Numbered from the stretch's first letter, positions 7,374 through 53,640 are shown. The stretch is DNA of 64,000 nt from Candidatus Liptonbacteria bacterium (GCA_016194445.1 JACQBP010000010.1:75-64074), one strand, 5' to 3'. A program made the numbers and translations. Notes: generated from the sequence alone by a model not told the origin.

Positions 7374-8288
7374 ATGGAAAAAGAATCACCGAAATCTTTT
7401 AACCGGTATGGCTCTAAATTTCCAGGCCCTGCCTTTTTGTTTTTACTCCTGTATTCTATATCCTATATCCTAAATCCTTCTACTGGTTATGCATCATCTC
7501 ATCCGGTTTTTTATTTTGAAGGACCAGAGGGGATGCTCGGGGCGGGAAGCGAGTTTTCAGTGAAAGTTTTGGTGGATTCAAAGGAAGCTCTCAATGCTTA
7601 TGCCTTCTCGATTGATTACCCAGCTGAGAAGCTTGAGGTGGTCAGTGTCAATGACGCCGGTACGATTCTAGACATTAGAAAAGATCAGCCGGAGGCCCCT
7701 TTTTCGAGTCCGCTTAAATTTTCCGGCGCCGGTTTTAAATCTTTTTCTGGGAAGGCGGGGTTGCTTTTTAGGATTAACTTTAGAGTGATTGAAGTCGGAT
7801 CTAGTCTACTAACATTTAGCGAATCAAAAGCTTACTTAGCTGACGGCAAGGGAACACTCATTGTTCCTGAGGTTCGAATTTTAAAGGTAGAAGCAAAAGA
7901 AGGTATTCTCGGGAGCACTCCCGAAGTGGTAAACGACAAAACGCCACCTTCATTTGAAAAACTGGCTTTAGTGCCGGACCCGATAAATTCTGGTCAAAAG
8001 TTGCTGACTTTTTTAGTTAAAGATGATGTTTCTGGAGTTAGAGATGTGTCACTGCAATCTAAACGCTGGTTATGGTGGGAGGAGATTAAGAAGATCAGCA
8101 ATCCGGCGGCAGTTTCGAATTCGACGTGGGCGGTGAGGGTTCGAGTGAGCGATAACACCGGCAACATTAGCGAGAAGATAATTTACGATTGGGGAGTTCT
8201 GGCGCGGAATCTTTGGCCTCTCATTTTGATAATGTTCTTTGCCATCATCCTAGTTATAAACAGAATATTTAGAAGAAAGCGGTTATAA
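7374..8288 (+). CDS. cohesin-like domain protein with a C-terminal membrane anchor
   Basis: The N-terminal segment GSEFSVKVLVDSKEALNAYAFSIDYPAEKLEVVSV...GLLFRINFRVIEVGSSLLTF...ADGKGT matches the cohesin beta-sandwich pattern. The C-terminus carries a TM helix (LWPLILIMFFAIILVI) followed by basic residues. Confidence 0.55.
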   Translation: MEKESPKSFNRYGSKFPGPAFLFLLLYSISYILNPSTGYASSHPVFYFEGPEGMLGAGSEFSVKVLVDSKEALNAYAFSIDYPAEKLEVVSVNDAGTILDIRKDQPEAPFSSPLKFSGAGFKSFSGKAGLLFRINFRVIEVGSSLLTFSESKAYLADGKGTLIVPEVRILKVEAKEGILGSTPEVVNDKTPPSFEKLALVPDPINSGQKLLTFLVKDDVSGVRDVSLQSKRWLWWEEIKKISNPAAVSNSTWAVRVRVSDNTGNISEKIIYDWGVLARNLWPLILIMFFAIILVINRIFRRKRL

Positions 8289-8298
8289 TGAGAGGGTA

Positions 8299-15537: not shown

Positions 15538-16234
15538 TATCATTACGATTTTCCCGAAGATCTTTGATTCTTACATTGGAGAGTCTTTTTTTAAGCGCGC
15601 GATTAAGGCGGGACTAATCGAGATTCGGACGCATAATCTGCGAGATTTCACTAACGATAAACATGCGAGAGTTGATGATCGGCCTTTTGGCGGGGGACCC
15701 GGGATGGTCCTAAAAATCGAACCGATTTTCCGAGCTGTTCAAAATGTTCGAGTTGATCGAAATGTTCGAAATGACGATCAAGCGAAGCGATCCATCAAGC
15801 GAAGTGATCGAGCGGTTCGAACTCGAGTTATTCTCTTCAGCACTCGGGGAAAGAAATTGGACGCGAAGATGGCGCAGAGGCTGGCGAAGTATGACCAATT
15901 AATTTTGATTTGCGGGAGATATGAGGGAGTGGATGAAAGGGTGGCAAAATATGTTGCCGACGAAGAAATCTCGATCGGGGATTATGTTTTGTCGGGAGGC
16001 GAATTGCCGGCCGCTGTTTTGATTGAGACGATCAGTCGTTTTTTGCCGGGTTTTTTGGGCAAGCGGGAGTCACTCGAGGAAGTTAAGGGTACTTATCCGG
16101 TTTATACTCAACCGGCTGATTTTCGGCCGATAAAATCGAGAAGTGTCTGGAAGGCGCCGAAAGTTTTGTTGTCGGGAGATCACAAAAAAATCCAAGCATG
16201 GCGATCCGACAAAAAGTCCTCTTCTGGGGTTTGA
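15509..16234 (+). CDS. trmD: tRNA (guanine37-N1)-methyltransferase
   Basis: TrmD motifs RFDIITIFP, PFGGGPGMVL, CGRYEGVDERV and GDYVLSGGELPA. A ~30-aa low-complexity insertion is encoded by short direct DNA repeats (15730-15810). Confidence 0.85.
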   Translation: MTLEKRRRFDIITIFPKIFDSYIGESFFKRAIKAGLIEIRTHNLRDFTNDKHARVDDRPFGGGPGMVLKIEPIFRAVQNVRVDRNVRNDDQAKRSIKRSDRAVRTRVILFSTRGKKLDAKMAQRLAKYDQLILICGRYEGVDERVAKYVADEEISIGDYVLSGGELPAAVLIETISRFLPGFLGKRESLEEVKGTYPVYTQPADFRPIKSRSVWKAPKVLLSGDHKKIQAWRSDKKSSSGV

Positions 16235-17634
16235 TTTTTCTTTTAGGTATTTTTGGCGCTTCGAGCGGGTGGAGTTTTTATTGGGTTTTTTTATTGGCCG
16301 GAGTTGGCGCTTTGATTTTTTGGCGGTTTAGAAAAGAAAAGAAAGGGGCATTACTAGTGGTTGGGACTTTGGTTGGTCTTGGCCTCGGATTTTTTTACTA
16401 CAGTTTTTATATTAATTTCACCGAGCGGAACCAAAACATTGTTTTGGACCGGAAAATTAATTTTGCGGGTGTGGTTACGAAAACCGAGATGCGGGACACT
16501 TATCAAAAATTAATTTTAGAACTTACGCCGCCTGATCGGGGGACGGTGATGGTCTTAGCTAAGCCAGCGCCAAACTTTGAGTACGGCGATCTTCTTAGGA
16601 TGGAAGGGGAAATTAGGGCGAGTCAGTTTGTCAATCAACCGCCCACGGTCGCTTTCCCAAAAATTGAAGTCGAAGCTAAAGATCAAGGGTTTTGGTTAAA
16701 AGCTGAACTTTATAAATTTAAAAACCATTTGACCGCTCAATTTAAGAAATATCTGAACGCTGACCAGGCGGCGCTCGTTTCGGGGATTACTTTCGGCGAG
16801 CGAGCTGAATTTAACAAAGATTTGAAAAACGATATGGCTCGAAGCGGAGTGACTCACATTGTGGCCTTGTCGGGCTACAACATCGCTGTTTTAGTTTTGG
16901 CCATTGAGCGGTCTTTGAAGAAACTGATGGCTCGCCGAAAGAGATTTTATTTGACGCTCGCGATTATCTTCCTTTTCGTCCTAATGGTGGGTGGTGAGGC
17001 ATCGGTCGTGCGGGCGGCAATTATGGGCGCGCTCATTCTCCTCGCCCAACATATCGGCCGACCGCACGATGCGTTGCATATTATAATGCTCACGGCTCTC
17101 GGGATGGTTTTAGTGAATCCCACTCTTCTCGCGTACGACATCGGTTTTCAGCTTTCATTTTTGAGTTTACTCGGGATTATTTTTCTGGAGCCGGCTCTCC
17201 GAAGAATTTTTAAAGTTGAAACTAAAAAAGGGGAAAGCTTTTTGGCTTGGAGGGAAAATGGCCTCACAACTATGGCCGCGCAACTGGCTGTGATTCCCGT
17301 TTTGATCCACAGCTTCAATCAGTTTTCCTTGACGGCGGTGGTTTCAAACGCTTTGATTTTGGTGACGGTGCCTTTGGCCATGTTTTTGGGGTTTCTGCTC
17401 GTAACCCTAAGTTCCATTTCTTTTTTCCTCGGCTTTTTGGCGGCAAAACTGGTAAGCATTTTGGCTTTCTATCAAATTTCCATCATCAAGATATTTTCGG
17501 TAATTTATATACCTCTGCCCGGCGGCCAATTTTTAAATAGTGGAATTGTTTTTGTAGTTTACTATGCCTTACTGATTTGGCTGGTCTTGTTGAAACAAGA
17601 AAAGGTCCCGACATTTAAAAAAATAAACCGATGA
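16198..17634 (+). CDS. comEC: competence protein ComEC/Rec2 (membrane channel part)
   Basis: Polytopic membrane protein with the Competence-domain motif GVTHIVALSGYNIAVLV. Confidence 0.75.
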   Translation: MAIRQKVLFWGLIFLLGIFGASSGWSFYWVFLLAGVGALIFWRFRKEKKGALLVVGTLVGLGLGFFYYSFYINFTERNQNIVLDRKINFAGVVTKTEMRDTYQKLILELTPPDRGTVMVLAKPAPNFEYGDLLRMEGEIRASQFVNQPPTVAFPKIEVEAKDQGFWLKAELYKFKNHLTAQFKKYLNADQAALVSGITFGERAEFNKDLKNDMARSGVTHIVALSGYNIAVLVLAIERSLKKLMARRKRFYLTLAIIFLFVLMVGGEASVVRAAIMGALILLAQHIGRPHDALHIIMLTALGMVLVNPTLLAYDIGFQLSFLSLLGIIFLEPALRRIFKVETKKGESFLAWRENGLTTMAAQLAVIPVLIHSFNQFSLTAVVSNALILVTVPLAMFLGFLLVTLSSISFFLGFLAAKLVSILAFYQISIIKIFSVIYIPLPGGQFLNSGIVFVVYYALLIWLVLLKQEKVPTFKKINR

Positions 17635-18479
17635 AAAATTTGAGTTGGATCATCGTTTTGGCCCTCATTGGTCTTAATTTGTTAACTTGGCGCGAAATAG
17701 TTTTTTCGAGTCAGGCCGGACCGGCTAAATTTTATTTTCTCCAAATCGGCCAGGGCGATTCAACTTTGGTCGAGTTACCCACCGGAGCGCAGATTTTAAC
17801 CGATGCCGGGCCGACGAAAAAAGTGGTTGACGAGTTGCAAAAGGTGATGGCTGGATCTGATCGCTATATAGACTTAGTGGTGGTTTCGCATCCGCAACTG
17901 GACCACTTCAACGGTTTTAACGATGTTTTAGATCGTTATCAAATCGGCGCTTTTATTTTTAACGGGCGGGAATCGGAACTGCCGGAATGGAAAGGTTTGA
18001 TGGCTAAAGTTAAAGAGAAAAAAATTCCGCTCGTCACACTCGCGGAGGGCGATCGAATAAAAAATGGCGGAAATGTGATTGACTTTATTTCACCGACTAA
18101 AGATTTTATTCAAAGCGCGGAGTTAAACGACACTGGCCTGGTTGAACTTATAAAAACAGAAAAAATGAGAATGCTTTTGACCGCAGACATCGGCGCGAAC
18201 GTGGAAAAATATCTGGTCGAAAAATTCGGCGGGCAGTTGGCGGCCGATATTTTGAAAGTACCTCACCACGGTTCGAAGTATTCCTCAAGCGAAGAATTTT
18301 TAAAAGCGATTCAGCCGAAGGTGGCCGTAATTGAGGTGGGTCAAAATAAGTATGGTCATCCAACCAAAGAAGCGTTGGACCGTTTGGAAGGGGTGGGCGC
18401 TAAAATTTTCCGCACAGATAGAAATGGAACTGTCACGATCACCACTTTCGGAGACAAAATGGAGGTTTTTGAGAATTAA
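17631..18479 (+). CDS. ComEC-type metallo-beta-lactamase domain protein. This is the ComEC C-terminal domain encoded as a separate ORF that overlaps the previous ORF by ATGA
   Basis: The sequence FLQIGQGDSTLVELPTG...VVSHPQLDHFNG is typical of the ComEC Lactamase_B domain. Confidence 0.7.
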   Translation: MKNLSWIIVLALIGLNLLTWREIVFSSQAGPAKFYFLQIGQGDSTLVELPTGAQILTDAGPTKKVVDELQKVMAGSDRYIDLVVVSHPQLDHFNGFNDVLDRYQIGAFIFNGRESELPEWKGLMAKVKEKKIPLVTLAEGDRIKNGGNVIDFISPTKDFIQSAELNDTGLVELIKTEKMRMLLTADIGANVEKYLVEKFGGQLAADILKVPHHGSKYSSSEEFLKAIQPKVAVIEVGQNKYGHPTKEALDRLEGVGAKIFRTDRNGTVTITTFGDKMEVFEN

Positions 18480-28081: not shown

Positions 28082-28588
28082 ATGGACAAATTGCCGGGTG
28101 ATTATGTGGCGGGTTTTGTGGATGGTGAGGGTTGTTTTGCTTTAAAATTTAGGCGCGATGTTAAACATGAACGTAAGGGTAAACCCATCTATTTCTATTG
28201 GGATATTGAATTCGCTATTGTTTTGCGTGAAGATGATGGAGGGATAATTCAAAACATAAGGGATACTCTGGGTTGTGGGAAAATAAGTATTAGCCGGAAA
28301 GGCCAAGTCAGGTATTCAGTAAACAGGATTGATGATTTACTTGATAAGGTAGTGCCATTCTTTGAGAGGTATAGATTAAGGGCAAAAAAGAGATTCGATT
28401 TTGAGTTATGGACAGAAGCTCTTGAGATATTGTCGAGAAATCAACAGACTAAGACGAAACGTAAAGGTATAGGTTTTGCAAAAGTAGAATGGGGAAGGGA
28501 TGATTTAAAAAGGTTGAGAGAAATCCAGGAAGAAATGCGAGAATTTAAGAGTAAAAGGAGTGATTGGAAATGGATAGCTCAAGTTTAA
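28082..28588 (+). CDS. free-standing single-motif LAGLIDADG homing endonuclease (I-CreI-like, 168 aa)
   Basis: YVAGFVDGEGCF LAGLIDADG motif near the N-terminus. The size and architecture match I-CreI. Confidence 0.75.
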   Translation: MDKLPGDYVAGFVDGEGCFALKFRRDVKHERKGKPIYFYWDIEFAIVLREDDGGIIQNIRDTLGCGKISISRKGQVRYSVNRIDDLLDKVVPFFERYRLRAKKRFDFELWTEALEILSRNQQTKTKRKGIGFAKVEWGRDDLKRLREIQEEMREFKSKRSDWKWIAQV

Positions 28589-35279: not shown

Positions 35280-37052
35280 TTAGTTAACTTCAAGATTGTA
35301 ACAACTTTCACAGTAAACAATTTCTGGACGGTTTAGGGCGTAGGTGGTGTGGAACTGGTTGGAGCAGGGCCCGGTTTCGTGATGGCGATGCGGGATTGTG
35401 TTTGAATATTTTTGGTAGTCGCACATACATTGCCGGAGATACCATTTGGGAGAGTTGCGGAGCTTGATTCTGGCTTGATGGCGGCAAGCGTGACAGAGTC
35501 GAGGCAGGGAGATTTCGAATTTTTTGTAGAACTCAAGTTCTGAAGCTAGAATGCGGTAGGCCTTTTTACATCCCAAGCAGCCGATAGTTTCTTTCAAAAT
35601 ATCTTCTGGTACGTCTCGAATATGGTCGGGCAAATCAGAAGCGCCTAAGGTAACTTTGAATTCTTTGGCTTCGGGATCTCGCCAGCGAAATCCTTTTTGA
35701 GTTGCCGCATCTTTGGTCAACAGAAAGAGATCTTGAGCGATGGTTTCGTTGTAAGCAAAAGGTGAAATTTCTAGCGGGAAAAATTCGCCATACCGGTAGA
35801 TGCGGCCACGGTGATCAGTGAAGGGTTTCTCATTCATGTGGGTAATGATTTTTTCTCGAAGTTTGTGAAAGTCTTCTCTAGAATACTGTTTATTAAAGAT
35901 GCAGTAAGATTTTTTCTTAAGGCCGACGCAACCGAAAAGATGGGTGGAAGAATGGCAATGCGCCGAGTATTCGACCTCTTCACAGGCGGGCCAGCATTCA
36001 AAGGAGAATTTCACTTGGCGGCAATTTTCGCCGCAGATGATAGATTCATACATCAACTCCGAATTATCGCCCCAGTGAGTGTAGTCGTAGCAATCGGCGG
36101 CGCCGTTTACCACCCGCTCGCAATATTTCAAATCTTTGATGTCTTTGATGACTTGATAACAGTATTTAGCATTTTTGGCGTGGTAGACATAATCACCGAT
36201 GACGTTTTCATTGTGGTGGCCGTGGATGTATTTAAAGGGGTGTTTAAGCCAGAAGGGGTAAATTTGTTTTTGAATGGCCTCGAGCGCGCGGTAGGAACCG
36301 AGGTTAAACTCTTTAATTTTCTCCAAGTATTCCTCTTTGGTGTAAGGGACATTGAAAATGTGATATTGCTTATGCCTTAAGTTGACACAACCGAAGCAGT
36401 TTTGGCAGTTGTAGCATTCACGCGAGAACCAGACGTTTTGACAGTCATCGCTTTCAACACTCATAAAAGTTTGGTTGCAGCGGTCGCAGGAAAGGAGTCC
36501 GTAGCAGGATTCGAGATAGTTGGCTTCGGAAAAATCGAATGAGTTGCTGCAGTGACGAAACCCCACGCCGTAGAAGCAGTTTTCAGATTCGTCGGCGTCA
36601 AAGCAAAGATAGCAGTCTTTGAGACGATTGCCGTTGTTGCAATAATCACTGTTGTTAAGATGCCAAATCGAGAGCGCGGCCCAAGGGACCGCATAAAATA
36701 GTTCCCGAAACTGTTCGAAGAAGGTTTTAGAAAAATCGTAATCCCGGGCGTATTCACTCGCGTCCCAGCCGTCGGACCACCAGTAGTCGTGGTCGTAGAG
36801 TTTAGCGCCGGAAGTTTTTGGGTAAGCGGAAAAGATCTCTTTGCCGGTTTTATGATGGGTGGCGCGGTAGAGATTGTGTTCATTCCAGAAAGAGAGGCGC
36901 CGGATGGCTCGACACCCCGGACACCAGGTGGGCGGAGGGACTTGAATTTTTTCGTAGAACTGAAAATCTTCGGGTTCGATTACGAAATTTTGTTTACAGT
37001 TTTGGCAGGTTTTAGTTTCAGGATTCATATTTGTGGCACTATGACGCGTCAT
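35280..37052 (-). CDS. large cysteine-rich protein of unknown function (590 aa, ~50 Cys) with terminal CxxC...CPxC zinc-ribbon-like motifs
   Basis: N-terminal CQNCKQNFVIEPEDFQFYEKIQVPPPTWCPGCR and C-terminal CLGCKKAYRILASELEFYKKFEISLPRLCHACR are mutually similar. The interior is packed with CxxC/CxGC modules (ECYNCQNCFGCVNL, SCYGLLSCDRCNQTF and others). The first codons (MTRHS) lie in a palindrome also found at 12558. Confidence 0.6.
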   Translation of the reverse strand: MTRHSATNMNPETKTCQNCKQNFVIEPEDFQFYEKIQVPPPTWCPGCRAIRRLSFWNEHNLYRATHHKTGKEIFSAYPKTSGAKLYDHDYWWSDGWDASEYARDYDFSKTFFEQFRELFYAVPWAALSIWHLNNSDYCNNGNRLKDCYLCFDADESENCFYGVGFRHCSNSFDFSEANYLESCYGLLSCDRCNQTFMSVESDDCQNVWFSRECYNCQNCFGCVNLRHKQYHIFNVPYTKEEYLEKIKEFNLGSYRALEAIQKQIYPFWLKHPFKYIHGHHNENVIGDYVYHAKNAKYCYQVIKDIKDLKYCERVVNGAADCYDYTHWGDNSELMYESIICGENCRQVKFSFECWPACEEVEYSAHCHSSTHLFGCVGLKKKSYCIFNKQYSREDFHKLREKIITHMNEKPFTDHRGRIYRYGEFFPLEISPFAYNETIAQDLFLLTKDAATQKGFRWRDPEAKEFKVTLGASDLPDHIRDVPEDILKETIGCLGCKKAYRILASELEFYKKFEISLPRLCHACRHQARIKLRNSPKWYLRQCMCDYQKYSNTIPHRHHETGPCSNQFHTTYALNRPEIVYCESCYNLEVN

Positions 37053-37692: not shown

Positions 37693-39162
37693 TTAGATCA
37701 ATGGTTCGGGTTCTTTGTTAGCGGTGGGGCCGGTGTTTTTTTCATCGTTGCCAGATTTTGCTTTGCCTTCAATGATGGCTTTTTCCCCAGCACTTCGGAA
37801 AATAGTGGCTTCTTCGGCGGCGATTAATTTTTTAGCGGCATCGGCGGGTATGGTGTATTTGCGGCGAGACTTGTCAGTGATTTCGTTTTTCCAAGATGAG
37901 TGGGTGGGTGGCAGAACTTTCAGGGTTTCGGCGGAGAAGGGATCGTAGGTTTCGCCGTCGATGGTCATTTTAATGTAGAACTCTTGCATGCCGAGGTTGA
38001 TCATGTCTTTGGTTTTGAAGATTGGGTCCATTTCGGGTTCAAGTTTGACCGCGTCTTCACCACCGACCCTAAAAATAACGATCGTGCCGGTGTTGCCAAG
38101 TACGGCGGCTTGGACGCGCGGGAGGAGTTGGGCGACGTATTGGTGGGCCACAGTGAGGCAGAGACCGTATTTGCGAGCTTCGGACAAGATGTTTTCGAAA
38201 GTTTCGGTGACTAAGTTGTGGAATTCGTCGACGTAGAGATAGAAGTCTGTGCGGGCCTCTTCGGGCATACTAGCTCTCGCCATGCCGGCTTGCTTGATTT
38301 TGGTGATAAACATCGCGCCCAAGAAACTCGAATTTTCTTCGCCAAGACGGCCTTTGCAGAGGTTGATAAAAAGAATTTTCTTTTCTTTCATTATCCTTTC
38401 GATATCGATCTTGTTTTCCTTTTGGCCGAAGATGTTACGTAAAAGCGGGTCGGACAAGAATTGGCCGAGTTTGTTTACAAGCGGGATGATGGCATCGGTG
38501 TCAAACTTTTCTGACCAATCGGCGAATTCAATCGCCCAGAAACGTTTGACCATGTCGTCCTCGATGTACTCGACAACTTTTTGGCGATAGTTGCGGTCGG
38601 TAAGCATCGAGATCATGCCGCGCATGGTGGCGTGCGGGTAATCCAAAAGCGCGAGACAAGTGAAACGGAAGACGTGTTCGAGGCGCGGGGTCCAGTTGGC
38701 GCCAAATTGCTTTTCCATGACTTCGATTAAACCTTGAGTGAGTTGGTGCTTAAAGGAAGGATCGATATTAGTTAGAGGATTAAAAGAGACGGGGTGAGCA
38801 AGATCGGTCGGGTCAATAATAATGACATCCTCGACTCGCTCTTTTGGCATGAAGTCTAAAATTTCCTGAATGACATCGCCGTGAGGATCAATAAAAACAA
38901 GACCATGGCCGTAGGCGATATCTTGGCGAATTAAGAGTTCGAGGAGTTTGGATTTCCCCACGCCGCTTTTGCCGACGATGTACATATGGCGGCGGCGATC
39001 TTTGCGCTTGATGCCGAAGATGAATTTCTTTTCCTCAAGAGCGGCCACGTAATTAGTGCGACCGATGAAAGAGGCTTCGGCGGGATCAACTCGGCCGTAG
39101 ATCGGGAGCTCCGACGGAGGCGGAGCGTATTTGATAATTTGAACTTTTCCGGCTTTGGGCAC
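37693..39162 (-). CDS. FtsK/HerA/VirD4-superfamily P-loop ATPase, paralog 2 (TraD/VirD4 coupling-protein-like)
   Basis: Walker A GKSGVGKS, VFIDPHGD and Walker B YLYVDEFHNL motifs. It is collinear with 13645-15537 and has a GTG start (MPKAGK). Confidence 0.6.
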   Translation of the reverse strand: MPKAGKVQIIKYAPPPSELPIYGRVDPAEASFIGRTNYVAALEEKKFIFGIKRKDRRRHMYIVGKSGVGKSKLLELLIRQDIAYGHGLVFIDPHGDVIQEILDFMPKERVEDVIIIDPTDLAHPVSFNPLTNIDPSFKHQLTQGLIEVMEKQFGANWTPRLEHVFRFTCLALLDYPHATMRGMISMLTDRNYRQKVVEYIEDDMVKRFWAIEFADWSEKFDTDAIIPLVNKLGQFLSDPLLRNIFGQKENKIDIERIMKEKKILFINLCKGRLGEENSSFLGAMFITKIKQAGMARASMPEEARTDFYLYVDEFHNLVTETFENILSEARKYGLCLTVAHQYVAQLLPRVQAAVLGNTGTIVIFRVGGEDAVKLEPEMDPIFKTKDMINLGMQEFYIKMTIDGETYDPFSAETLKVLPPTHSSWKNEITDKSRRKYTIPADAAKKLIAAEEATIFRSAGEKAIIEGKAKSGNDEKNTGPTANKEPEPLI

Positions 39163-39212: not shown

Positions 39213-39809
39213 TCATAGTTCGGCGAGATCGATGACGTCTAACTCCTGAAGCATCACTTCGTAATTGTGAATGGCTTTTTTGACGCCTTCTCGAGTGATT
39301 TCGAAATCAGGAGTGTGGACAATATGGTTGCGGTATTCATTAGCTTTCAGGGCGGGACTACGGATCCAACCGAGATCATCCGAAAGGATTTGATTGATCT
39401 TGTCGCCGGTGGTTTCACCCGTGAAACCCACTCGCTCCAAGATTTCGCCGGCTAACTTGTCCGCTTCCATGATGGCTAATTTCATTAAGTCAGTGTCGCC
39501 ACTCAACGCTTTTTTTCGGATTGATCGCCACTCTACCATCACGGCTTTTTCTTCTTCGGATAGAACTTTTTTAATTTTTGGCGTTTGAATCGCTAAGTGA
39601 GGGCGATAAGGGATGGCTTTAATTAGGGAAAAGATAAAAAAAATGAGGAAGGTGAAGTTCACGGCAAACCAAAAAACTTTGACGTCGATCACGGGTTTTT
39701 GAGGCCAGGCGTCCACGGTTAGATAAATGGAGCCAGCCAGGAGTAAGACGCCGATCACAAAGACCAGAGACCGGAGCAGTTTTAAAGTTTGGTAGAAACC
39801 CCAATTCAT
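39213..39809 (-). CDS. membrane protein (two N-terminal TM helices plus a soluble domain)
   Basis: Hydrophobic helices LVFVIGVLLLAGSIYL and FWFAVNFTFLIFFIFSLI. It is flanked by the ATPase and large membrane protein genes in the same orientation. Confidence 0.5.
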   Translation of the reverse strand: MNWGFYQTLKLLRSLVFVIGVLLLAGSIYLTVDAWPQKPVIDVKVFWFAVNFTFLIFFIFSLIKAIPYRPHLAIQTPKIKKVLSEEEKAVMVEWRSIRKKALSGDTDLMKLAIMEADKLAGEILERVGFTGETTGDKINQILSDDLGWIRSPALKANEYRNHIVHTPDFEITREGVKKAIHNYEVMLQELDVIDLAEL

Positions 39810-39816
39810 TTTGATG

Positions 39817-41202
39817 CTAGAGGAATTTTTCGATTTTTTCTTCTTCGCCGAAAATGGCTAAGCCCGCCGGCGGCCCCGCCTTGCGACTCTCAACGCGTTT
39901 GACGTGCGGAGCCACCAAGACATATTGGCTCGGCGGATGGAAGAGGGTAGCGATGGATTCGATATTTAAATGGATGGGCTTAGAAGCAAAATTGAAATTA
40001 AAATGATAGGCGGAAAGGATTTTGGCCCAGAAAGTCTTTTGAGGTTGTTTCCAGCGCAAGTAGTTGTAGAGAAGTCGTTGTTTGCGGTAGCGATTTCTGG
40101 TTTGGGCAAAGAAGAAGGGCCAAGTCCAGAATTTAAGACGGGTGGAAACTTTGATGTTTTGCCTAAAAGAATTCAAGTCGAGGGCGCTATATTGATTAAA
40201 CGCACCAACCAAGCCGCGACGGGCAAAGCTGTCGTAAAACATTAGCTTCGGTGAAAAATAAATAAAGCGGACCGTGGTTTTGAAAGCGGGTTTAGAGAGG
40301 TTGGTTTCGACCGCCTTTAAGACATCGGTTTCGCCGGGAGAACGAGTGAGGGATTTGGCGAAGAGGTCGAGGGCATCGGTCTCGGGTTTTTCGGTAGTGA
40401 AAACTGGCAACGGGCCGCCGGGGAAAGTGGTGGTGGTTTCGACTCCGCCAAGATGAGCCTGGGCTTCTCGCCGGGCTTTAGTTTGCTTTAACTTTTCAAC
40501 CAATTCTTCCCATTCGTCTTTCCACGAGGCGGTATCAGCTTCGAGCAGAAGTTGAATGCCGACCATTTCTTGTTTTTTGACTTTCGCGAGCACTTCTAAA
40601 AAGGCGGAGATGGGGTCGTATTCTTTATTTTCATCGGGTGACTCAAAGAACGGATAAGTTTTGATCGGGTAAGCTTCTTCACGATTCAGAACCATTTCGG
40701 TACCCCAGAGCTCGTAGCCTTTGCTGTACATATCCTCGACGTTCGACGGGAAGCGGTTTAAGTAATCCTCAACCTCGACGAGCTCAACGTCTTGGTAATA
40801 CGAGTAAAAAGCGGCTTCAACCAAAGCGCGATATTTGTAATAAAGCCGAACATAAAAATGGACTTCCCCACCGAAGCTCACCATTTCTAAAGAAAACCAG
40901 CGGGTGACTTCGCCGTCGCGATAGTACTCGGCAAGGTCATAGGCTTCGTTTCTTAAGGCGTGGATGGAAGCCAAGACTTGTTCCATGGCCTTTGGATTAC
41001 GAAGCGTTTCGCGCGGCATATTGATTTCCAAAAGAATCCACTTAAGTTTTTTCTTGAAATCCTCTCGGCGCCAAAAAAGAAGGGTTTGCTCAGCCATCTG
41101 GAAAAGAATAAAAGCTAAGGCAAATAAGCCAATTAAAGTGGCGATCTCGAGGTTGAGGGGCGAAAGGATATTTGTCAGATCCGTGGCGGTCGCGGGTGAC
41201 AT
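39817..41202 (-). CDS. large membrane-anchored protein of unknown function (461 aa)
   Basis: N-terminal TM helix (IATLIGLFALAFILF) followed by a large soluble domain. It is the second gene of the putative operon. Confidence 0.5.
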   Translation of the reverse strand: MSPATATDLTNILSPLNLEIATLIGLFALAFILFQMAEQTLLFWRREDFKKKLKWILLEINMPRETLRNPKAMEQVLASIHALRNEAYDLAEYYRDGEVTRWFSLEMVSFGGEVHFYVRLYYKYRALVEAAFYSYYQDVELVEVEDYLNRFPSNVEDMYSKGYELWGTEMVLNREEAYPIKTYPFFESPDENKEYDPISAFLEVLAKVKKQEMVGIQLLLEADTASWKDEWEELVEKLKQTKARREAQAHLGGVETTTTFPGGPLPVFTTEKPETDALDLFAKSLTRSPGETDVLKAVETNLSKPAFKTTVRFIYFSPKLMFYDSFARRGLVGAFNQYSALDLNSFRQNIKVSTRLKFWTWPFFFAQTRNRYRKQRLLYNYLRWKQPQKTFWAKILSAYHFNFNFASKPIHLNIESIATLFHPPSQYVLVAPHVKRVESRKAGPPAGLAIFGEEEKIEKFL

Positions 41203-47384: not shown

Positions 47385-48647
47385 TTAGTTGTCAAATGTA
47401 GCCAGTTTTTTAGTTTTGAGTGCGTTATACGCATACAAATACATTCCGGCGGACCAGGCTTGGTAGGGAGAAGAACCGCCTTCGGGCTTGCCGGTTTTGC
47501 CATCGAGCCACTCGTAAAATCCGAACTCCTTAAGGTTTTTTTCATCCCCCACCTTTTTCAAATGTGAGGGACTGCAGCGGGGAGTTTTAAATACTTCTCT
47601 GTTTGCCTGCGCAAGAAGTTTAAGCTCCTTCTCTGCCTTCTTGTATCGCCTTGTTTTGACGAGGGCGGCCACATAAAATCCGCCGATGAAGGGCCAGATG
47701 CCGGCGTTTAGATAGTGGAAAGCTTCGCGGGCTTCGCATTCGTCGAAGTAAGAGCGCCATTCCTTGTCCCCTTTTCGAATGGGTGGCCAGATGGCTTTAC
47801 AGGGGTAGGGGCGATTGATTTTATTTTTTTCGATGTAGTTTAAAATTGAGTTGGCGATTTGGGGAGTGGCGAGGCCGGTTGTAATCGCTAAAAGATTGCC
47901 GAGAGTGTCGAACCAACTTTCTTGCTCTTTGTGTTTGGGATTAGGGCCGTGAGTTTTCCAGACCCAGGGACGATAAAACCCTAGAGACATGTCGAATAGA
48001 GACAAGTACTTTTGGGTTTCGCCGTTAACGATTTTTTTGAGGTGGGCGGCTTTTTTCTTCTGGCCAGTTAAATTTAGAACGGCATAGTAGAGGGCTTCGG
48101 TGTTTATCACGCGGCCGTATTTGTGTGGGAAGGCATCTTGCCATTCCATAGTTGGCTGTTGGACGAGCAAACTATCTTCGTTCGGATCTTGGTATTCGAG
48201 CCAGGTGAGGGCCGCCTTTAAGCGCTTGGCGTGCTTTTTGAGGATGGATTTTTCTTTGTAAGTTTTGGCGTAAGTGTGGAGGCCGATGATCCACCAAAGA
48301 GTGGAGTCGATAGAATTAAAAGTAATGTCGGAGCGACGCTCGAGGTTGTAGCTTCCGACAGCGTTGGGGATTTGGCCGTGCTTGGATTGGTTTTGGGCTA
48401 GGAGTTCAAGGCTTTTTCTGAAGGTGATTTTTAACTTGTCACTTTTCACATTTAACGTTGCGACTCCAAGTCCTGTAATCATGCTGTCGCGGGCCCAAGT
48501 GGCTTCGTAGCCGCCGGGTAAACCGGAGGCGTAGAAGCCGGTTTTTTTGGCGCAGTGTTCGAGGACCTGGATGGCTTTTTGGTAAGCCATCTCCGTTGCT
48601 TGAATGTTGGAGTGTTGGATTGCTTGATTGCGAGAATGTTGTTTCAT
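47385..48647 (-). CDS. (alpha/alpha)6-barrel glycoside hydrolase, GH125-like (putative exo-alpha-1,6-mannosidase)
   Basis: LPGGYEATWARDSMITG resembles the GH125 ...AMWLRDS motif. At 420 aa, the length fits GH125. Confidence 0.5.
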   Translation of the reverse strand: MKQHSRNQAIQHSNIQATEMAYQKAIQVLEHCAKKTGFYASGLPGGYEATWARDSMITGLGVATLNVKSDKLKITFRKSLELLAQNQSKHGQIPNAVGSYNLERRSDITFNSIDSTLWWIIGLHTYAKTYKEKSILKKHAKRLKAALTWLEYQDPNEDSLLVQQPTMEWQDAFPHKYGRVINTEALYYAVLNLTGQKKKAAHLKKIVNGETQKYLSLFDMSLGFYRPWVWKTHGPNPKHKEQESWFDTLGNLLAITTGLATPQIANSILNYIEKNKINRPYPCKAIWPPIRKGDKEWRSYFDECEAREAFHYLNAGIWPFIGGFYVAALVKTRRYKKAEKELKLLAQANREVFKTPRCSPSHLKKVGDEKNLKEFGFYEWLDGKTGKPEGGSSPYQAWSAGMYLYAYNALKTKKLATFDN

Positions 48648-48758
48648 TTGTTCAATTATAGCATCGTTGAGTACAAAAAATGAATGGGTAATTTTTCCAG
48701 CATTCCATTATAAATGAATATTCTCTTAAGATGGAACGATGGTGAAAAGTGAAAAGAA

Positions 48759-48790
48759 AACCGCCCAGCACACACCATGTGGGCAGTTTT
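48759..48790. terminator. bidirectional terminator-like hairpin (GCCCAG...TGGGC) with U-tracts on both strands
   Basis: It lies downstream of the 48824-49648 minus-strand gene. Confidence 0.4.
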
Positions 48791-48823
48791 CTTTTTCTCA
48801 CTGAAAACGTCACTCTATACAGA

Positions 48824-49648
48824 TTAGAAGACGGTGACACTGGCTACATTAGAGTAGCTTGAGCTCCCCCCTGAATTATAGGCTCTTACTCGATAGTAAA
48901 TTGTTCCTGTTGCATTATTGCTATTGGTGTAAGTGGTTATATTCGAACCAACTGTACCTATTTGACTGAAGCTAGAAGTGCTGTAAAAGCTGCTCTCTAC
49001 CGCGAAACCATCCTCATATTCGGAATTGTCCGTCCAGCTTAAATTTTTAATTGTCCCGCTTGCGTTTGCCGTTAGATTTGAAGGAGCATTAAGCGAGGTG
49101 TAGGTGATTTTAGTTGAGAGGCGACTTACACGCGCTCCTTTTGACCCAGAAACAAAAACAAATCCAGATTGGAGCGTCGTTGACCCATTTTTTATATTAG
49201 GGATTAATAAGAATTCGTAAGGTACTTGGTCGGTGGGAGTTGTGCCACTGAGATAATATTCCCCATCATCTCCACTGTCGCTACCGTTTAATCTATAAAA
49301 AACATTTACGTTTGAGGTTCCTGAGCCGGAAAGGTGATTAGAGGCGCATGGCGTAATTTCGATTGCAGTTATAGCTGATCCATTTGGTACCGAAGAAAGA
49401 TTTATACTGAACGATTCCCTGTTGTTCGTAGCTGTTGTATATATATAATCAGTATTTCCGTTGCACGATGTTTCATCTACGAGAGTGTATTTTAATGTAC
49501 TACTCCCACTTGATGCCGTCCAAGCACTATAAAAACCATTTAAGACGGGGAGAAGATCTGCGGTTGTATCTGCATAAATTTTAATTACTGTTGCAATTGT
49601 CAGTACGGAGAAAGCCAATAAATAAACGGTTAATTTTTTTCTAGACAT
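48824..49648 (-). CDS. secreted protein with a C-terminal fibronectin type III-like domain
   Basis: Signal peptide, and at the C-terminus SAPSNLTANASGTIKNLSWTDNSEYEDGF...YYRVRAYNSGGSS FN3-like sequence. Confidence 0.55.
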   Translation of the reverse strand: MSRKKLTVYLLAFSVLTIATVIKIYADTTADLLPVLNGFYSAWTASSGSSTLKYTLVDETSCNGNTDYIYTTATNNRESFSINLSSVPNGSAITAIEITPCASNHLSGSGTSNVNVFYRLNGSDSGDDGEYYLSGTTPTDQVPYEFLLIPNIKNGSTTLQSGFVFVSGSKGARVSRLSTKITYTSLNAPSNLTANASGTIKNLSWTDNSEYEDGFAVESSFYSTSSFSQIGTVGSNITTYTNSNNATGTIYYRVRAYNSGGSSSYSNVASVTVF

Positions 49649-49752
49649 TTTTATTTGTGTTTTTGATTTTTTATTCGACCTTTACCTCTTCCAATGCTAG
49701 TCTGGCAAGTAGATACGAAATGGTGGATTCGGCGCCTTGGTTCCGCGCTTTA

Positions 49753-49998
49753 CTACTTCGGATGTTTTGAGATCGTGATTACGAAGACAACATCTTTTTT
49801 CATGGTAAAGAAAAATCGGTAGTTTTTATCGATTCGTCCCTGCCAAACATTCTGGGATTCGTCATATTTTTTAGCGTGAATCGAAGGGTGTCGGAGATTT
49901 TTTATCAACAATGAAAATTGTTTATCTGCCTTCGTTTTTAGCTCTTTCGATAGATCGAGGTAGTCGTCTAGAGCTTTTTTCGCAAAAGCTAACTTCAT
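49753..49998 (-). CDS. type II toxin, YoeB/Txe (RelE superfamily)-like
   Basis: MKLAFAKKALDDYLDL...WQGRIDKNYRFFFTMKKDVVFVITISKHPK aligns with YoeB (MKLIW...WDDYLYW...WSRRI...HRLVY...H). Confidence 0.6.
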   Translation of the reverse strand: MKLAFAKKALDDYLDLSKELKTKADKQFSLLIKNLRHPSIHAKKYDESQNVWQGRIDKNYRFFFTMKKDVVFVITISKHPK

Positions 49999-50007
49999 CT
50001 GCTTATT

Positions 50008-50238
50008 TTAACGATTTTTAAGAGCAGTTTTGAATGCTTGAATATTTTTGAATGGGCCGAAAACTCGCCCGAGTTCGATGTCTTTAAGGCCTTCGAAAAT
50101 CGCTTGGTTTAAAACACTTCGCGATTTGGTTGAAATTGAAGCCCGGCCAGTTTTCACTGACTTAATTGGAATTTTAACAATGAGGTATTCTTTGGTTTTC
50201 TCGATAGTGACTTGATTCATTTGGTTTAAAGATACCAC
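50008..50238 (-). CDS. putative cognate antitoxin, with a possible AbrB/MazE-like N-terminus
   Basis: 76-aa ORF 9 nt upstream of the toxin gene (antitoxin-toxin order). It carries an EYLIVKIPIK motif. Confidence 0.45.
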   Translation of the reverse strand: MVSLNQMNQVTIEKTKEYLIVKIPIKSVKTGRASISTKSRSVLNQAIFEGLKDIELGRVFGPFKNIQAFKTALKNR

Positions 50239-50286
50239 AACTGCTTTCGTGGAAGCAAATTTAGGGAAGTTAGGGTGCTGGAATGA

Positions 50287-52506
50287 CTATGACTGCTTAA
50301 TTTCTTCTAATGCAAGGCGAGCTAAGAGATACGAAATGGTGGATTCGGCGCCTTGGTTCAAGTTGATCGCGTACTGACCGACGCCATCGTAGCAGCCGCC
50401 GGTGGCTTCATCGTAGACCATTTGGCCCAAGTGATTTTTGCCGAGAAACCAGTTCATCACTCGGTAGGCGTCTTTCAGGTATTGCTTATCCCCGGTCACT
50501 TGGTAGGCGACCACTTTGGTTTCGACCATGGTCGAAGTTTCTTCGGGTTGCTGGTCGAAGTAGGCGCGCTTTTTGTTGCGGAAGTACCAGCCGTTTTGGC
50601 CGATCGGCGAGTAGTGATCTTTTTCGAAGGTGATCGATTTCAAGAAGTTTAGAGTTTTTTTGGCGACTTCGAGATACTCGGGATTTTTGATTAAGTCGTA
50701 GGCATAGAAAAGGGATTCGGCGAGCTTGCTGTTTGAATAAGTTAATTGATCCTCAAACCAATGCCAGTCAACGCCCGAGTATTCTTTATATTGACCGACT
50801 TGGCGATCAGCCATTTTTTTCATTAGTTTTAGAAGCGCGGGTTTGGGATTATTTTTTAAGTAGAAGTAGAGGCCGGTCATCGCGAAGGCGATGGCGCGAG
50901 GCGAGGTGAGGCGCGGAAGAAACGGAAAAGTTTTGGTGAGGATTTTCTCGGCTTTGGTTCGGATCTCATCCGGAAGATTTTCATTTTTGGCGACTAATCC
51001 AAGCGCCCAAATGGCTCGGCCTTGGACGTCTTCGTCGGCGGTAGCGTCTCTCAATTTTTGATACGAAACGATATTGGCGAATTTGCCGTTGGGACGTTGG
51101 GTGAACTTAACAAAATTGAGATAGGTAGTCATGAGCCGTTCGAGTTCAGGATCGGGTTTGGTTTGATAAGCTTTAGCGGAAACTACCAGAGCGCGGGCGT
51201 TGTCGTCGAGACTGTAGCCGTAGCGTTTTTCGGGTTTGGAATATTTGGCAAAGTGGAAGATACCAAAGCTGTCGGTCATGCGGCGAAGGTGATCGAGTTT
51301 AATATCGGGGAGTTTATCATCCTCGGCTTCGAGATCGGCGAATTCTTTGTATAAATTAAAATAGGCGGTCGCGACGTTCGGCCAAGTCATCGGGCGAGTG
51401 TGTTCATAAGCTTCGCGACCCATTCCTTTTATGCGTTTCTCGTCAGCTAAAATTTCTAGCAAGGATTTGGTGATCGCGCCTGGGTTTTTGATTGGCACGA
51501 GAACACCAGTTTGGGGAGTGACTAGGAACTGTGCGTAGGAAGAGGCGGTGGAGATGACTGGCCGGCCAAAACCCATGGCGTAGGAAAGGGTACCGCTCAC
51601 CGATTGACCTTCGTCGATCGAAGGAGAGATGTACAAATCGGTGGCTTTTAGATATTTGGAGAGTTCCTCGAGGTCAAGATATTTGTTGTAAAACTTGACG
51701 TGTTCTTCTAATCCCAATTTTTGAACTTCAGCAATGAGGGAATTTCTGTAAACTTCACCCTTTTCTTTGGCGACATTCGGATGAGTGGCGCCGATAACCA
51801 CGTAAACAACATTGGGAAATTTTTGGATAACTTCGGGGAGAGCACGGATGGCGTATTGGATGCCTTTGTTCGGACTTAAGAGGCCGAAGGTCGAAAGAAC
51901 AGTTTTGCTTTCAAGCCCGAGTTCGATTTTGTATTTTTCACTGGATTCAAAAGCGGTTTGGGGAATGCCATGCGGAACGAGCCGGATTTTCGTTTCGTCG
52001 ATGCCATAATCATTTTTCAAAATATCCTTGGAGAGCGAATTCATGACGATCACGGCGCGAGATTTATCCACAATCGCGCGAACAATATTTTTCAGATCGT
52101 CCTCGGGATCAGGAATGGCGGTGTGAAAAGTGGTCACGACCGGCTTTTCGATGACTTGGAGAAAGGGAATAATGTAGTCACCCCAGTTGCCGCCGTAGAG
52201 ACCAAATTCGTGTTGGAGATTGACAACTTTGATTTCGTTGTTTTGGTTAATTTCGCGAGCGAGATTGACGTAATTGGAAATTTCGTTCGAATTGATTTCA
52301 TCGGCTACTTTGGTTGGGTAGTTATAAATAGCGGTCGGATTGTCGTTTAAAGCGACGATGCGGGATTTAACCGCTGGATTGAATTTGGTGTCTAAAGCGG
52401 CGGTGATGTCTTTCGTAAAGGTGGCGATGCCGCAAGCTCTTGGCGGATAAGAACTGATATGAATTACGAAATTGGAATTTTTTCGCCCGACTTCTTTGAG
52501 GTTCAT
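50287..52506 (-). CDS. GT4 glycosyltransferase fused to a C-terminal (alpha/alpha)6 glycoside-hydrolase-like domain
   Basis: N-terminal half shows a GT4 fold (DLYISPSIDEGQSVSGTLSYAMGFGRPVIST). The ~330-aa C-terminal domain (GYSLDDNARALVVS...GRAIWALG) resembles six-hairpin glycosidases. Confidence 0.65.
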   Translation of the reverse strand: MNLKEVGRKNSNFVIHISSYPPRACGIATFTKDITAALDTKFNPAVKSRIVALNDNPTAIYNYPTKVADEINSNEISNYVNLAREINQNNEIKVVNLQHEFGLYGGNWGDYIIPFLQVIEKPVVTTFHTAIPDPEDDLKNIVRAIVDKSRAVIVMNSLSKDILKNDYGIDETKIRLVPHGIPQTAFESSEKYKIELGLESKTVLSTFGLLSPNKGIQYAIRALPEVIQKFPNVVYVVIGATHPNVAKEKGEVYRNSLIAEVQKLGLEEHVKFYNKYLDLEELSKYLKATDLYISPSIDEGQSVSGTLSYAMGFGRPVISTASSYAQFLVTPQTGVLVPIKNPGAITKSLLEILADEKRIKGMGREAYEHTRPMTWPNVATAYFNLYKEFADLEAEDDKLPDIKLDHLRRMTDSFGIFHFAKYSKPEKRYGYSLDDNARALVVSAKAYQTKPDPELERLMTTYLNFVKFTQRPNGKFANIVSYQKLRDATADEDVQGRAIWALGLVAKNENLPDEIRTKAEKILTKTFPFLPRLTSPRAIAFAMTGLYFYLKNNPKPALLKLMKKMADRQVGQYKEYSGVDWHWFEDQLTYSNSKLAESLFYAYDLIKNPEYLEVAKKTLNFLKSITFEKDHYSPIGQNGWYFRNKKRAYFDQQPEETSTMVETKVVAYQVTGDKQYLKDAYRVMNWFLGKNHLGQMVYDEATGGCYDGVGQYAINLNQGAESTISYLLARLALEEIKQS

Positions 52507-52590: not shown

Positions 52591-53640
52591 TTAGCGAATG
52601 TTGTGATATTTGGCCTTTCGGATGATTTCGAGACAGAGTTTGTCGAGATTGACTTTGGCGACACCGATATATTTGTCGGCGGCGCCGTAGTAGATATATA
52701 AGTCTTCATCAAAAATGGCAGTGCCGGTTGGGAAGACGACGTTTGAAACAAAGCCCTGTTTCTCCCACTTTTCTTCGGGTGATAGGAGTGGTTGGTGGAG
52801 GCGTCCTTTGTATTTTAAAGGATCATTGCCGTCCAGAAGGGCGGCGGCGCCGCGATAGATGCGCGATTGGTTTAATTCTTCGACAGCGTGGTAAATCAGA
52901 AGCCAGCCGTATTTGGTTTTGATGGGTGGTGCTCCCCCGCCGATGTTGCGGGATTCGAACCAATATTTGTTTTCGAGTAAAACGTATTTAGTCAGATTTT
53001 TTAAATAGTCCTTCCAAAATTTTTTACTTTTGAGTTGTTCGAAATTATTAAAGTAAACGATTTGGATGTCGGGGAGGATGCGATGGATCATGGCGAACTT
53101 GCCGTTAATTTTTTTTGGGAAAAGGAAAACATCTTTTTCCCAAAGGAAGACATCTTGGCCGGCGTATTCTTCGTAAAAGGATTCGAACATAAAATATCGA
53201 TCTTTTAATTTTTCTTTTCTGAAAATTCTTCCGACTTGGTCGTAGGTGATGCGCGGGGTGATGACGCCTTTCTTTTCTAAATTTTTTAAATCTTTACCCA
53301 TGGCATAAGCGGTCACCGCGTTTTTTCCATCATGGGCAACGTAGGTCAGATAGAAAGTGCCGTCGATTTTGACTATTCTTGGGTCTTCGCAACCCTTTTT
53401 TTCGTATTCAAACTCTTTTTGGATGATGGGTCGGTCCCAGCGCTCAACAACTTTGGTGGGGCCTTTTAGTTTGGCGTAACCGATTGAAGAGATGTGTTTT
53501 TTATTGATGGCGCGGTAAAAGATGTGCACAAACTCGCCGTCTTGGTAGACGCCGGGATTTAAAACAGAGAGATCTTCGAATTTATTTTTAGTCGGAGCGA
53601 GGAGGATGCCCAGCTTCTCGACTTTGATGTGATCGTTCAT
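52591..53640 (-). CDS. GH130 family glycosidase/phosphorylase (beta-mannoside-acting)
   Basis: CEDPRIVKIDGTFYLTYVAHDG and GGGAPPIKTKYGWLLIYHAV motifs typical of GH130 (DUF377). Confidence 0.75.
   Translation of the reverse strand: MNDHIKVEKLGILLAPTKNKFEDLSVLNPGVYQDGEFVHIFYRAINKKHISSIGYAKLKGPTKVVERWDRPIIQKEFEYEKKGCEDPRIVKIDGTFYLTYVAHDGKNAVTAYAMGKDLKNLEKKGVITPRITYDQVGRIFRKEKLKDRYFMFESFYEEYAGQDVFLWEKDVFLFPKKINGKFAMIHRILPDIQIVYFNNFEQLKSKKFWKDYLKNLTKYVLLENKYWFESRNIGGGAPPIKTKYGWLLIYHAVEELNQSRIYRGAAALLDGNDPLKYKGRLHQPLLSPEEKWEKQGFVSNVVFPTGTAIFDEDLYIYYGAADKYIGVAKVNLDKLCLEIIRKAKYHNIR

Follow-up and report, generated by a model that had tools for sequence, protein, structure and literature searches.

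A stretch of 64,000 nucleotides from the metagenome-assembled genome (MAG) of a Candidatus Liptonbacteria bacterium, a member of the Patescibacteria, holds a small toxin-antitoxin (TA) pair that is enclosed by two copies of the 3' end of a glycosyltransferase (GT) gene. We refer to this whole 64-kb stretch as the window, and as W where it is compared with related lineages. In the reading that we favour, and to which we give an even chance of being right, the interval between the GT gene and the GDE-like hydrolase gene that follows it is a hypervariable cargo slot that exchanges its cargo by homologous recombination, with a conserved core near the end of the GT gene and the orphan copy of that core acting as the joint. 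The orphan, which comprises the core, a tail of 13 codons and a stop (49671-49743), is a recently fossilised GT gene end that still occupies its natural place ahead of a gene for an FN3-like protein. The original prediction, made from the sequence of the window, had described this anatomy largely correctly. It had presented the anatomy as the classic footprint of a site-specific integration, by implication a recent one, and neither the mechanism nor the recency was supported by the analysis reported here.

The core of the repeat (GATACGAAATGGTGGATTCGGCGCCTTGGTTC, 32 nt) is present exactly twice in the window, within the GT gene at 50328-50359 and as the orphan at 49712-49743. No further copy was found in the window when up to three mismatches were allowed, and 100 shuffles yielded no chance match. 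The exact identity in fact reaches 33 nt and is embedded in a wider repeat of 64 nt that is 83% identical, at a spacing of 616 nt. Both copies lie on the minus strand and encode NQGAESTISY, and both continue into a tail that encodes LLARLALEE(I/V)K followed by a stop. The in-gene tail (LLARLALEEIKQS, with its stop at 50287-50327) constitutes the real end of the GT gene. The orphan tail (LLARLALEEVKVE, with its stop at 49671-49711; nhmmer E 4.9e-20) ends 22 nt from the ATG of the FN3-like gene. The two tails are coded differently, with 22 matches in the first 33 nt and 25 of 42 when the stop is included. As had been proposed, the differences are mostly synonymous and the tails represent two functional alleles. 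The orphan of W lacks a start codon, as do those of the two other lineages described below (H and S), and the orphan shares a frame with the toxin gene only in H, not in W or S. On these grounds the possibility that the orphan is translated was rejected. An RNA element in the orphan region was likewise considered and rejected, as there is no Rfam match and no stable fold (z = +0.48). No inverted repeat overlapping either copy of the core was found, nor any dyad resembling an attachment (att) site in the window.

A scan of metagenome contigs for the core, together with look-ups of toxin homologues, revealed the same kind of arrangement in two other lineages, designated H (L012, L015, L016 and L017) and S (L019 and L020). 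All three cassette-bearing groups are ultra-small groundwater bacteria. In H and S the order is GT gene, core, tail, small membrane-protein gene, terminator, antitoxin, toxin, orphan core, orphan tail and another small membrane-protein gene. The repeats are accordingly spaced 616 (W), 840 (H) and 898 bp (S) apart, the longer units of H and S also holding the small membrane-protein gene and the terminator. The description of the unit as a tiny one of about 0.6 kb that lacks an integrase stands as regards the integrase, none being found in the window; size and content differ between the lineages. The orphan starts at the identical nucleotide (GAACCAAG) in W, H and S, at 2-9 nt after the toxin stop; by alignment the spacer is 9 nt in W (49744-49752), 2 nt in H and 3 nt in S. 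The block of antitoxin, toxin, orphan core and tail is collinear among the three lineages and 76-78% identical. The TA genes themselves show 77-78% nucleotide identity, and their synonymous sites are as saturated as those of the GT gene and of the GH130 phosphorylase gene upstream of it (fraction of identical codons ~0.5). Thus, the junction between toxin and orphan is old, and was either inherited or precisely re-created, which contradicts the implied recency. Moreover, the duplication did not arise as an artefact of assembly, since the independent assemblies of H and S show it too. The orphan core is followed by the FN3-like gene in W and by unrelated small membrane-protein genes in H and S. 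This lineage-specific sequence, which in W matches the gene end and FN3 gene of a relative that lacks the TA pair (L037, see below), places a breakpoint in or at the core.

Eleven related loci were compared for the stretch that runs from the GH130 gene via the GT gene to the GDE-like gene. These flanking genes were kept in all 11 lineages, and the content in between differed in every one of them. Neither the TA pair nor the FN3 gene is present in L001, L002, L003, L004, L031, L032 and L034, each of which has its own small membrane-protein genes in the slot; these absences support the view that the TA pair, at the 3' end of the GT gene, is an accessory part of the locus. On the level of the GT protein, W shares 86% amino-acid identity with its sister L001, 83-85% with L031, L032 and L034, and 74-77% with lineages H and S. 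The content of the slot differs even between sisters, as illustrated by W and L001 (86%) and by H and L003 (93%). With such different contents between conserved flanks, the slot turns over faster than the flanks do.

An uninterrupted GT gene that is followed directly by the FN3 gene, an arrangement that the original prediction had envisaged in relatives, exists in L037. Here the GT gene ends in LLARLALEEIKVEP and a stop, after which come a 24-nt A-rich spacer and an FN3 homologue (59% amino-acid identity); the spacer between the orphan stop and the FN3 start in W (49649-49670, 22 nt) is similarly A-rich. The L037 tail matches the orphan tail of W at 26 of 33 nt and has the identical GTC GAA codons, and it is the real gene end to which the W orphan tail is closest. 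L037 belongs to the same clade as W; over the 87 nt that precede the core it agrees with W at 77 positions and with L001 at 80. The difference between L037 and W amounts to exactly one copy of the core, the in-gene tail and the TA pair, and the comparison shows that the orphan tail and the FN3 gene form a natural unit. The in-gene tail of W, in turn, resembles that of L001 (25 of 33 nt), as does the sequence after the stop (10 of 12). A BLAST alignment of L001 7100-7238 to W continues through +18 nt, and a separate local alignment has a score that was reached by 12 of 2000 shuffles. Of the 28 nt that lie 3' of the GT stop in W (50259-50286), the first 12-18 nt are therefore homologous to the corresponding sequence of this TA-less sister. 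Judging from these comparisons, both tails of W are natural, functional alleles of the same clade. The suggestion that the orphan tail represents the ancestral gene end thereby became undecidable. Our own converse idea, that the in-gene tail is native and the polarity first proposed was wrong, was withdrawn after the L037 comparison for the same reason. A phylogeny based on the tails alone was rejected as too noisy, the best match being 26 of 33 nt against a background of 20-24 of 33. We also rejected a joint import of the TA pair and the right flank from an H-like donor, which had been considered because the GDE-like gene looked 84% identical to that of H: the same residues are equally similar in all lineages, and the N-terminal extension of the W protein is shared with L031, a member of the clade.

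The footprint of a repeated gene end recurs with other cargo and with another boundary. In L037 the FN3 gene is itself flanked by tail repeats, as a second partial GT tail (cTTGCCAGATTAGCTCTTGAGGAGATA; nhmmer E 0.006) follows the FN3 terminator, 25 of 27 nt being identical (L037:1040-1105 and 120-162). The left boundary of this second tail differs from that of the W orphan, and the contig ends there. A weaker case is found in L001, where 12 nt after the GT stop there is an apparently decayed second GT 3' end (TCCAACATTCTCGCATTCCCGCAGTTCCAATGCCCTTGAAGAAGTAAAG; L001:7221-7300; nhmmer E 0.19), which could be a scar of cargo loss.

The nature of the core itself puts the perfect repeat in another light. 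The codons for NQGAESTISY form the most conserved 10-codon window of the GT gene at the nucleotide level (rank 1 of 704; pairwise identity 0.90 over 10 lineages). Their third positions are 0.70 identical, versus 0.50 at other invariant residues, which might reflect either a constraint on the DNA itself or frequent exchange among the lineages. Because the core is the most conserved window of the gene, any two alleles will show near-identity here and divergence after it, so that the sharp switch from 100% to about 60% identity at the end of the core is not evidence of a crossover. The core is simply the last good homology before the variable region, and only the 5' boundary of the orphan is informative about the event. 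Homologous recombination accounts for the data no less well than the site-specific integration that had been proposed.

Despite the age of the toxin junction, the orphans are young. In W, H and S alike, the reading frame of the orphan is intact through LLARLALEE(I/V)K and the amino-acid sequence of the family is retained, and nearly all differences among the orphans, as well as between them and the live ends, are synonymous. For instance, the W orphan and the second S copy differ by 13 synonymous and 3 nonsynonymous changes over 15 synonymous and 48 nonsynonymous sites (pN/pS ~0.05-0.1). The sole clear amino-acid change among the orphans is a Gly to Asp replacement in S, where third positions account for four of the five differences in the core. 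Live and orphan core are identical at 32 of 32 positions in W, 31 of 32 in H and 27 of 32 in S. The orphan of W matches L003 at 40 of 41 positions. Moreover, the orphan cores of W and H are identical over all 32 nt, yet the adjacent toxin genes are only ~80% and the tails ~73% identical. An almost exclusively synonymous divergence means that the orphans were functional gene ends until recently, and an old toxin junction next to young orphans fits only with repeated recombination inside the core.

The cargo in question consists of a toxin gene of 81 codons (49753-49998, minus strand), which was identified by weak profile matches and a structure model, and an antitoxin gene of 70 codons directly upstream of it (50008-50220, minus strand; MNQVTIEK...), which was identified by homology to the toxin partners in relatives. 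The true start of the latter is the ATG at 50220, as judged from homologues; the listing of open reading frames (ORFs) had extended it to a GTG at 50238. The antitoxin ORF ends 9 nt before the toxin start, and W, H, S, L021 and L022 all retain this pairing. The toxin gives sub-threshold YoeB/ParE matches in Pfam and remains below the curated cutoffs of both PF06769 (20.9 versus 27 bits) and TIGR02116 (20.5 versus 51.8 bits), and a comparison of its profile with the PDB reached E 0.012 to YoeB. The claim of a YoeB/RelE-like toxin with an upstream antitoxin between the repeats was corroborated at the level of the fold. The AlphaFold model (pLDDT 90.9) best matches YoeB (2a6r_C; TM-score 0.84, rmsd 2.0) and also 8yxv, and the top 36 PDB matches are all TA toxins of the YoeB, RelE, YafQ or ParE type. 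The catalytic residues of YoeB are Glu46, Arg65, His83 and Tyr84. Residues R61 and H79 of the toxin are invariant and align with Arg65 and His83, whereas the loop of Glu46 falls in a 5-residue deletion and the C-terminus reads HPK and not HY.

Amino-acid identity between the antitoxin and the upstream toxin partners of H, S and L021 is 71-83%. Over its C-terminal half the antitoxin is also homologous to the C-termini of the PF04014-type (AbrB/MazE-type) antitoxins that accompany distant relatives of the toxin, and a BLASTP comparison with such a MazE-type partner gave no match. Searches of the Pfam, NCBIfam and PADLOC libraries returned no match for the antitoxin, and in particular no YefM/Phd or RelB model, and a single-sequence AlphaFold model (pLDDT 66) had no meaningful fold matches. 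The pair resembles the YefM-YoeB and RelBE modules in its 81-residue YoeB/RelE-fold toxin, in the invariant R61 and H79 and in the small antitoxin gene at 9 nt upstream, and differs from them in a toxin that stays under all library thresholds and lacks the Glu46 loop and in an antitoxin without a YefM/Phd or RelB match. By its modelled fold and its small upstream antitoxin gene, the pair is predicted to be a type II TA module of the RelE/YoeB superfamily. The toxin is probably a ribosome-dependent mRNA endonuclease that would be neutralised by the antitoxin, and a putative addiction exerted by the pair would disfavour loss of the block.

Upstream of the TA operon (50221-50258) we read a weak promoter-like sequence, TTGCTT-18-TATCTT, which fails a consensus scan, together with a small hairpin at 50235-50252. 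The region is homologous to that upstream of the H-lineage antitoxin, which contains TTGCCT-17-TATCAT. The GC content of the cassette is about 37%, as compared to 47-52% for the GT gene.

Members of the TA family are also found at unrelated loci that lack a GT fragment (L021 and L022), which implies that the TA pair is cargo and not the mover. At L021 the right edge of the cassette is seen to be essentially the toxin stop. In this locus (L021:1326-1381) the toxin is 68% identical, and a glmS-like gene (MCGIFGY...) has its ATG 1 nt from the toxin stop, without any GT fragment. A more distant toxin relative, in L023 (46% identity, with a MazE-type antitoxin), resides at an unrelated locus and is flanked by diverged direct repeats of about 75 nt (4590-4665 and 5270-5350). 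Each of these repeats holds a TTGACA-17-TATCAT/TAGATT promoter, the first copy preceding the antitoxin and the second following the toxin. No flanking repeats were found around the distant TA relatives at the GroEL-BipA locus of L027. Two fragmentary contigs deserve mention as well. L018, a coverage-1 contig of 795 bp from another Hainich well (L018:1-795), carries the toxin followed by an A-type core, a tail and the membrane-protein gene that is normally 3' of the GT gene. An excised circle or a tandem copy would show its parts in this order; the first 33 nt of L018 match no other contig, however, and it may be a chimera. The coverage-1 contig L014 (950-1009, read on the minus strand) has unrelated sequence in place of the initial ~40 nt of the antitoxin gene, which represents either a truncated allele or a chimeric contig end.

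We propose that a single old illegitimate event would have placed a 3' fragment of the GT gene, starting at GAACCAAGG, behind the stop codon of a self-contained TA operon of the YoeB/RelE type. From then on the orphan core could have served as a short homology arm and the GT gene as a long one. Recombination of the RecA type with DNA from a related lineage may move the block of GT end, cargo, TA pair and orphan core into a genome, and the same process could swap whatever follows the orphan core. The block might also be deleted again when the two direct repeats recombine with each other. Each exchange would renew the orphan with a functional allele, which would explain its intactness and, in W, its identity to the live core. 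As regards this scheme, we infer which enzyme acts, in which direction the events ran and what part natural transformation plays.

None of the 52 ORFs scanned in the 64-kb window (~47 distinct genes) encodes an integrase, transposase or other recombinase, and recA is not within the window. ComEC is present at 16198-17634 (plus strand), and Patescibacteria have been reported to be competent and to keep the genes for homologous recombination (PMC12455944). The comEC gene is apparently split into two overlapping ORFs, with the PF03772 channel domain at 16198-17634 and the metallo-beta-lactamase domain at 17631-18479 (plus strand). In addition, the window encodes two TrwB/VirD4-like coupling-protein ATPases, at 13645-15537 (plus strand) and at 37693-39162 (minus strand), the second one among large ORFs without a Pfam match (35280-37052 and 39213-41202). 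This may represent a type IV secretion or DNA-transfer machinery of Patescibacteria.

Several points weigh against exchange by homologous recombination. A homology arm of 32 nt is near the lower limit for RecA-dependent exchange. The recombination is deduced from end products, no event having been observed directly, and a site-specific recombinase, for which the search covered this 64-kb contig only, would likewise produce a junction at precisely the same nucleotide in three lineages. Within the same population, neither a molecule with an empty site nor an excised circle was found, L018 being the sole candidate. Which of the two tails was resident and which arrived is not decidable from 40 nt, and neither is the direction of the event, considering the noise of comparisons between tails alone (26 of 33 nt as against 22-24 of 33). 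Finally, a promoter-like sequence, TTGAnG-17-TGnTATAnn, occurs in fixed register in the GT tail of both copies of H and S and of L031, and the duplicated gene end of H and S would therefore also carry the promoter of the next gene. In W such a role for the duplicated end is unsupported, as neither copy of the GT end passes the promoter consensus scan.

The site-specific integration put forward in the original prediction deserves consideration as an alternative. A cassette consisting of a replacement gene end and the TA pair would have entered a 32-nt att site by means of a recombinase encoded elsewhere, and would persist as an integrase-less remnant of the kind known as cis-mobilizable elements (CIMEs). 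We judge this to be unlikely, and keep it alive because it would also explain the constant junction and the fresh orphans. The flanking repeats, perfect in W and nearly so in H, are indeed what an att site would give, but those of S are only 27/32 identical, and as the repeat falls on the best-conserved part of the gene its identity needs no att site. L037 looks like an empty site. Against the proposal, the in-gene tail of W together with the 12-18 nt after its stop matches the chromosome of the TA-less L001. The order of toxin, core and A-type tail in L018 is as expected for a circle or tandem junction, on a contig, however, that has a coverage of 1 and an unexplained 5' end. CIMEs, with attL and attR sites and without an integrase, are a known outcome of the decay of elements (PMC5704250). 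Here, there is no integrase in or near the unit, or in the window as a whole, there are no inverted-repeat arms in or around the core, the content of the supposed element varies between lineages (616, 840 and 898 bp), and a scan of viral contigs with a degenerate core pattern gave no match. A more far-reaching variant holds that the core is a genuine att site of an integrase-less, integron-like accretion system in Patescibacteria, which we regard as quite improbable. If it were true, each cassette (the TA pair, the FN3 gene or the small membrane-protein genes) would bring a fresh C-terminus and promoter and push the prior gene end downstream. The TA pair would then be the addiction module that fixes the array, and the L037 footprint and the L001 scar would be products of the same mechanism.

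Another possibility is that the locus is static. One ancient rearrangement, for instance an insertion that duplicated a long target or a tandem duplication that included the GT 3' end and the gene after it, would have set the TA pair between the two copies, followed by vertical inheritance and many losses and by no later recombination in the core; the orphan would have been kept for the promoter or regulation of the next gene. The shared junction and a TA divergence as deep as that of the hosts are in line with this view. The same goes for the promoter-like sequence, whose register is constant across L031 and the two copies each of H and S, for the orthologous appearance of the H and S copies (ATG-type versus GTG-type downstream genes, similar terminators), and for the possibility that L001 carries a deletion scar. 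Nevertheless, we consider it rather improbable. Selection on a promoter would not keep the frame and the amino-acid sequence of an untranslated fossil of 21 codons, as reflected in the pN/pS of ~0.05-0.1, nor would the GC-rich core, which lies upstream of the -35 element, remain identical over 32 nt between W and H. Furthermore, neither copy in W has a scoring promoter, and the match of the W orphan tail and FN3 gene is to the live gene end of L037, not to the orphans of the other two cassette-bearing lineages. The static view would also call for the cassette to have been lost independently four or five times at the least. A chimeric join of two strains via the 33-nt repeat, finally, comes to mind because the window stems from a MAG and because short contigs of low coverage show odd ends here (L014 and L018). 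However, a mis-join mediated by the repeat cannot create the junction between toxin and core, and this junction is present on at least six contigs of the two other lineages, which are independent of each other and come from different samples and assemblers, so that the probability of such an artefact is close to nil.

In comparison with described systems, the locus combines a replacement slot, or minimal mobile element (MME), with the duplication of a gene end and a TA cargo. TA modules are typical cargo of integrative islands. As in the integrative elements that reside in the 3' ends of genes and in CIMEs (PMC5704250), the cargo lies between direct repeats of a gene end, the gene is kept intact by the second end, and an unoccupied relative exists. 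The locus differs from these in that no integrase was found, that the repeat has no dyad and is the most conserved coding stretch, that the unit is only 0.6-0.9 kb with varying content, and that the structure is old, with diverged cores in one lineage. The MMEs of Neisseria (Saunders and Snyder, 2002), as portrayed in PMC3787668, are slots between conserved genes whose content is exchanged by natural transformation and homologous recombination in the flanks. Going by that account, the likeness consists of variable cargo between the same conserved flanks in close relatives, with no mobility genes in the window and with ComEC present. The present locus would fall outside the MME definition as given there, since one of the arms is apparently a 32-nt orphan copy inside the slot, which leads to duplicated ends and to additive as well as replacement events.

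The proposed mechanism has precedents. In homology-facilitated illegitimate recombination, one long anchor together with a very short or illegitimate second join suffices to integrate foreign DNA (PMC3240628), and in transformation-driven unequal crossing-over the alternative pairing of a partly repeated donor fragment produces duplications (PMC3784515). Those were laboratory events, whereas here only the evolutionary end product is seen, with a junction that is re-used or inherited across lineages. The TA cassettes of integrons are similar in being promoter-poor units of ~0.5 kb that are exchangeable in an array-like slot. In contrast to these, there is no attC-like palindrome after the toxin, where the GT fragment starts 9 nt on and neither a fold nor an Rfam match was obtained, there is no IntI in the window, and the cassette has its own upstream region.

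The wider locus has the gene order GH130, GT, slot and GDE-like hydrolase, all on the minus strand, and adjoins a tRNA-Lys gene and the hrcA-grpE-dnaK-dnaJ cluster. Its proteins match those of a MAG recorded in NCBI as Candidatus Liptonbacteria at 100% identity. The conserved left flank is formed by the GH130 phosphorylase gene (52591-53640; Pfam PF04041, E 4.8e-52), which is syntenic in all relatives. It is followed by the gene of the 739-residue GT fusion protein (50287-52506; Pfam Glycos_transf_1, E 4.7e-20, with weak GH127/GH76 matches), which has an N-terminal GT4 domain and a C-terminal (alpha/alpha)6-like domain that resembles glycoside hydrolases. The FN3-like gene (48824-49648) encodes a secreted protein of 274 residues, homologues of which carry PF00041; it is cargo of the slot and missing from most relatives. 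A terminator-like hairpin, an inverted repeat with 16-nt arms that are 94% complementary, is located 3' of it (48752-48795). The right flank is the GDE_C/GH100-like glycoside hydrolase gene (47385-48647; Pfam), again syntenic in all relatives. Elsewhere in the window there is a free-standing LAGLIDADG homing-endonuclease ORF (28082-28588, plus strand; PF00961, E 5.7e-20), between a gene for a BNR/sortilin-repeat protein and murC. An ORF of 1691 codons at the start of the window (23-5098, plus strand) and the cohesin-domain proteins encoded at 7374-10395 resemble large surface proteins.

The findings have implications at three levels. For the annotation of genomes they call for caution, as a perfect repeat with a seemingly regenerated gene end is no proof of site-specific integration if the repeat is the most conserved stretch of the gene. 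With respect to the TA systems, the toxin and its unclassified antitoxin define a subfamily of the YoeB/RelE fold that is missed by the current libraries. To our knowledge, the movement of small TA cassettes without mobility genes is poorly documented, and the locus offers a concrete and testable route for it, in which a short orphan copy of a conserved neighbour would serve as homology arm. The locus also illustrates how Patescibacteria, with their reduced genomes, may maintain a slot for changing cargo and do without dedicated recombinases.

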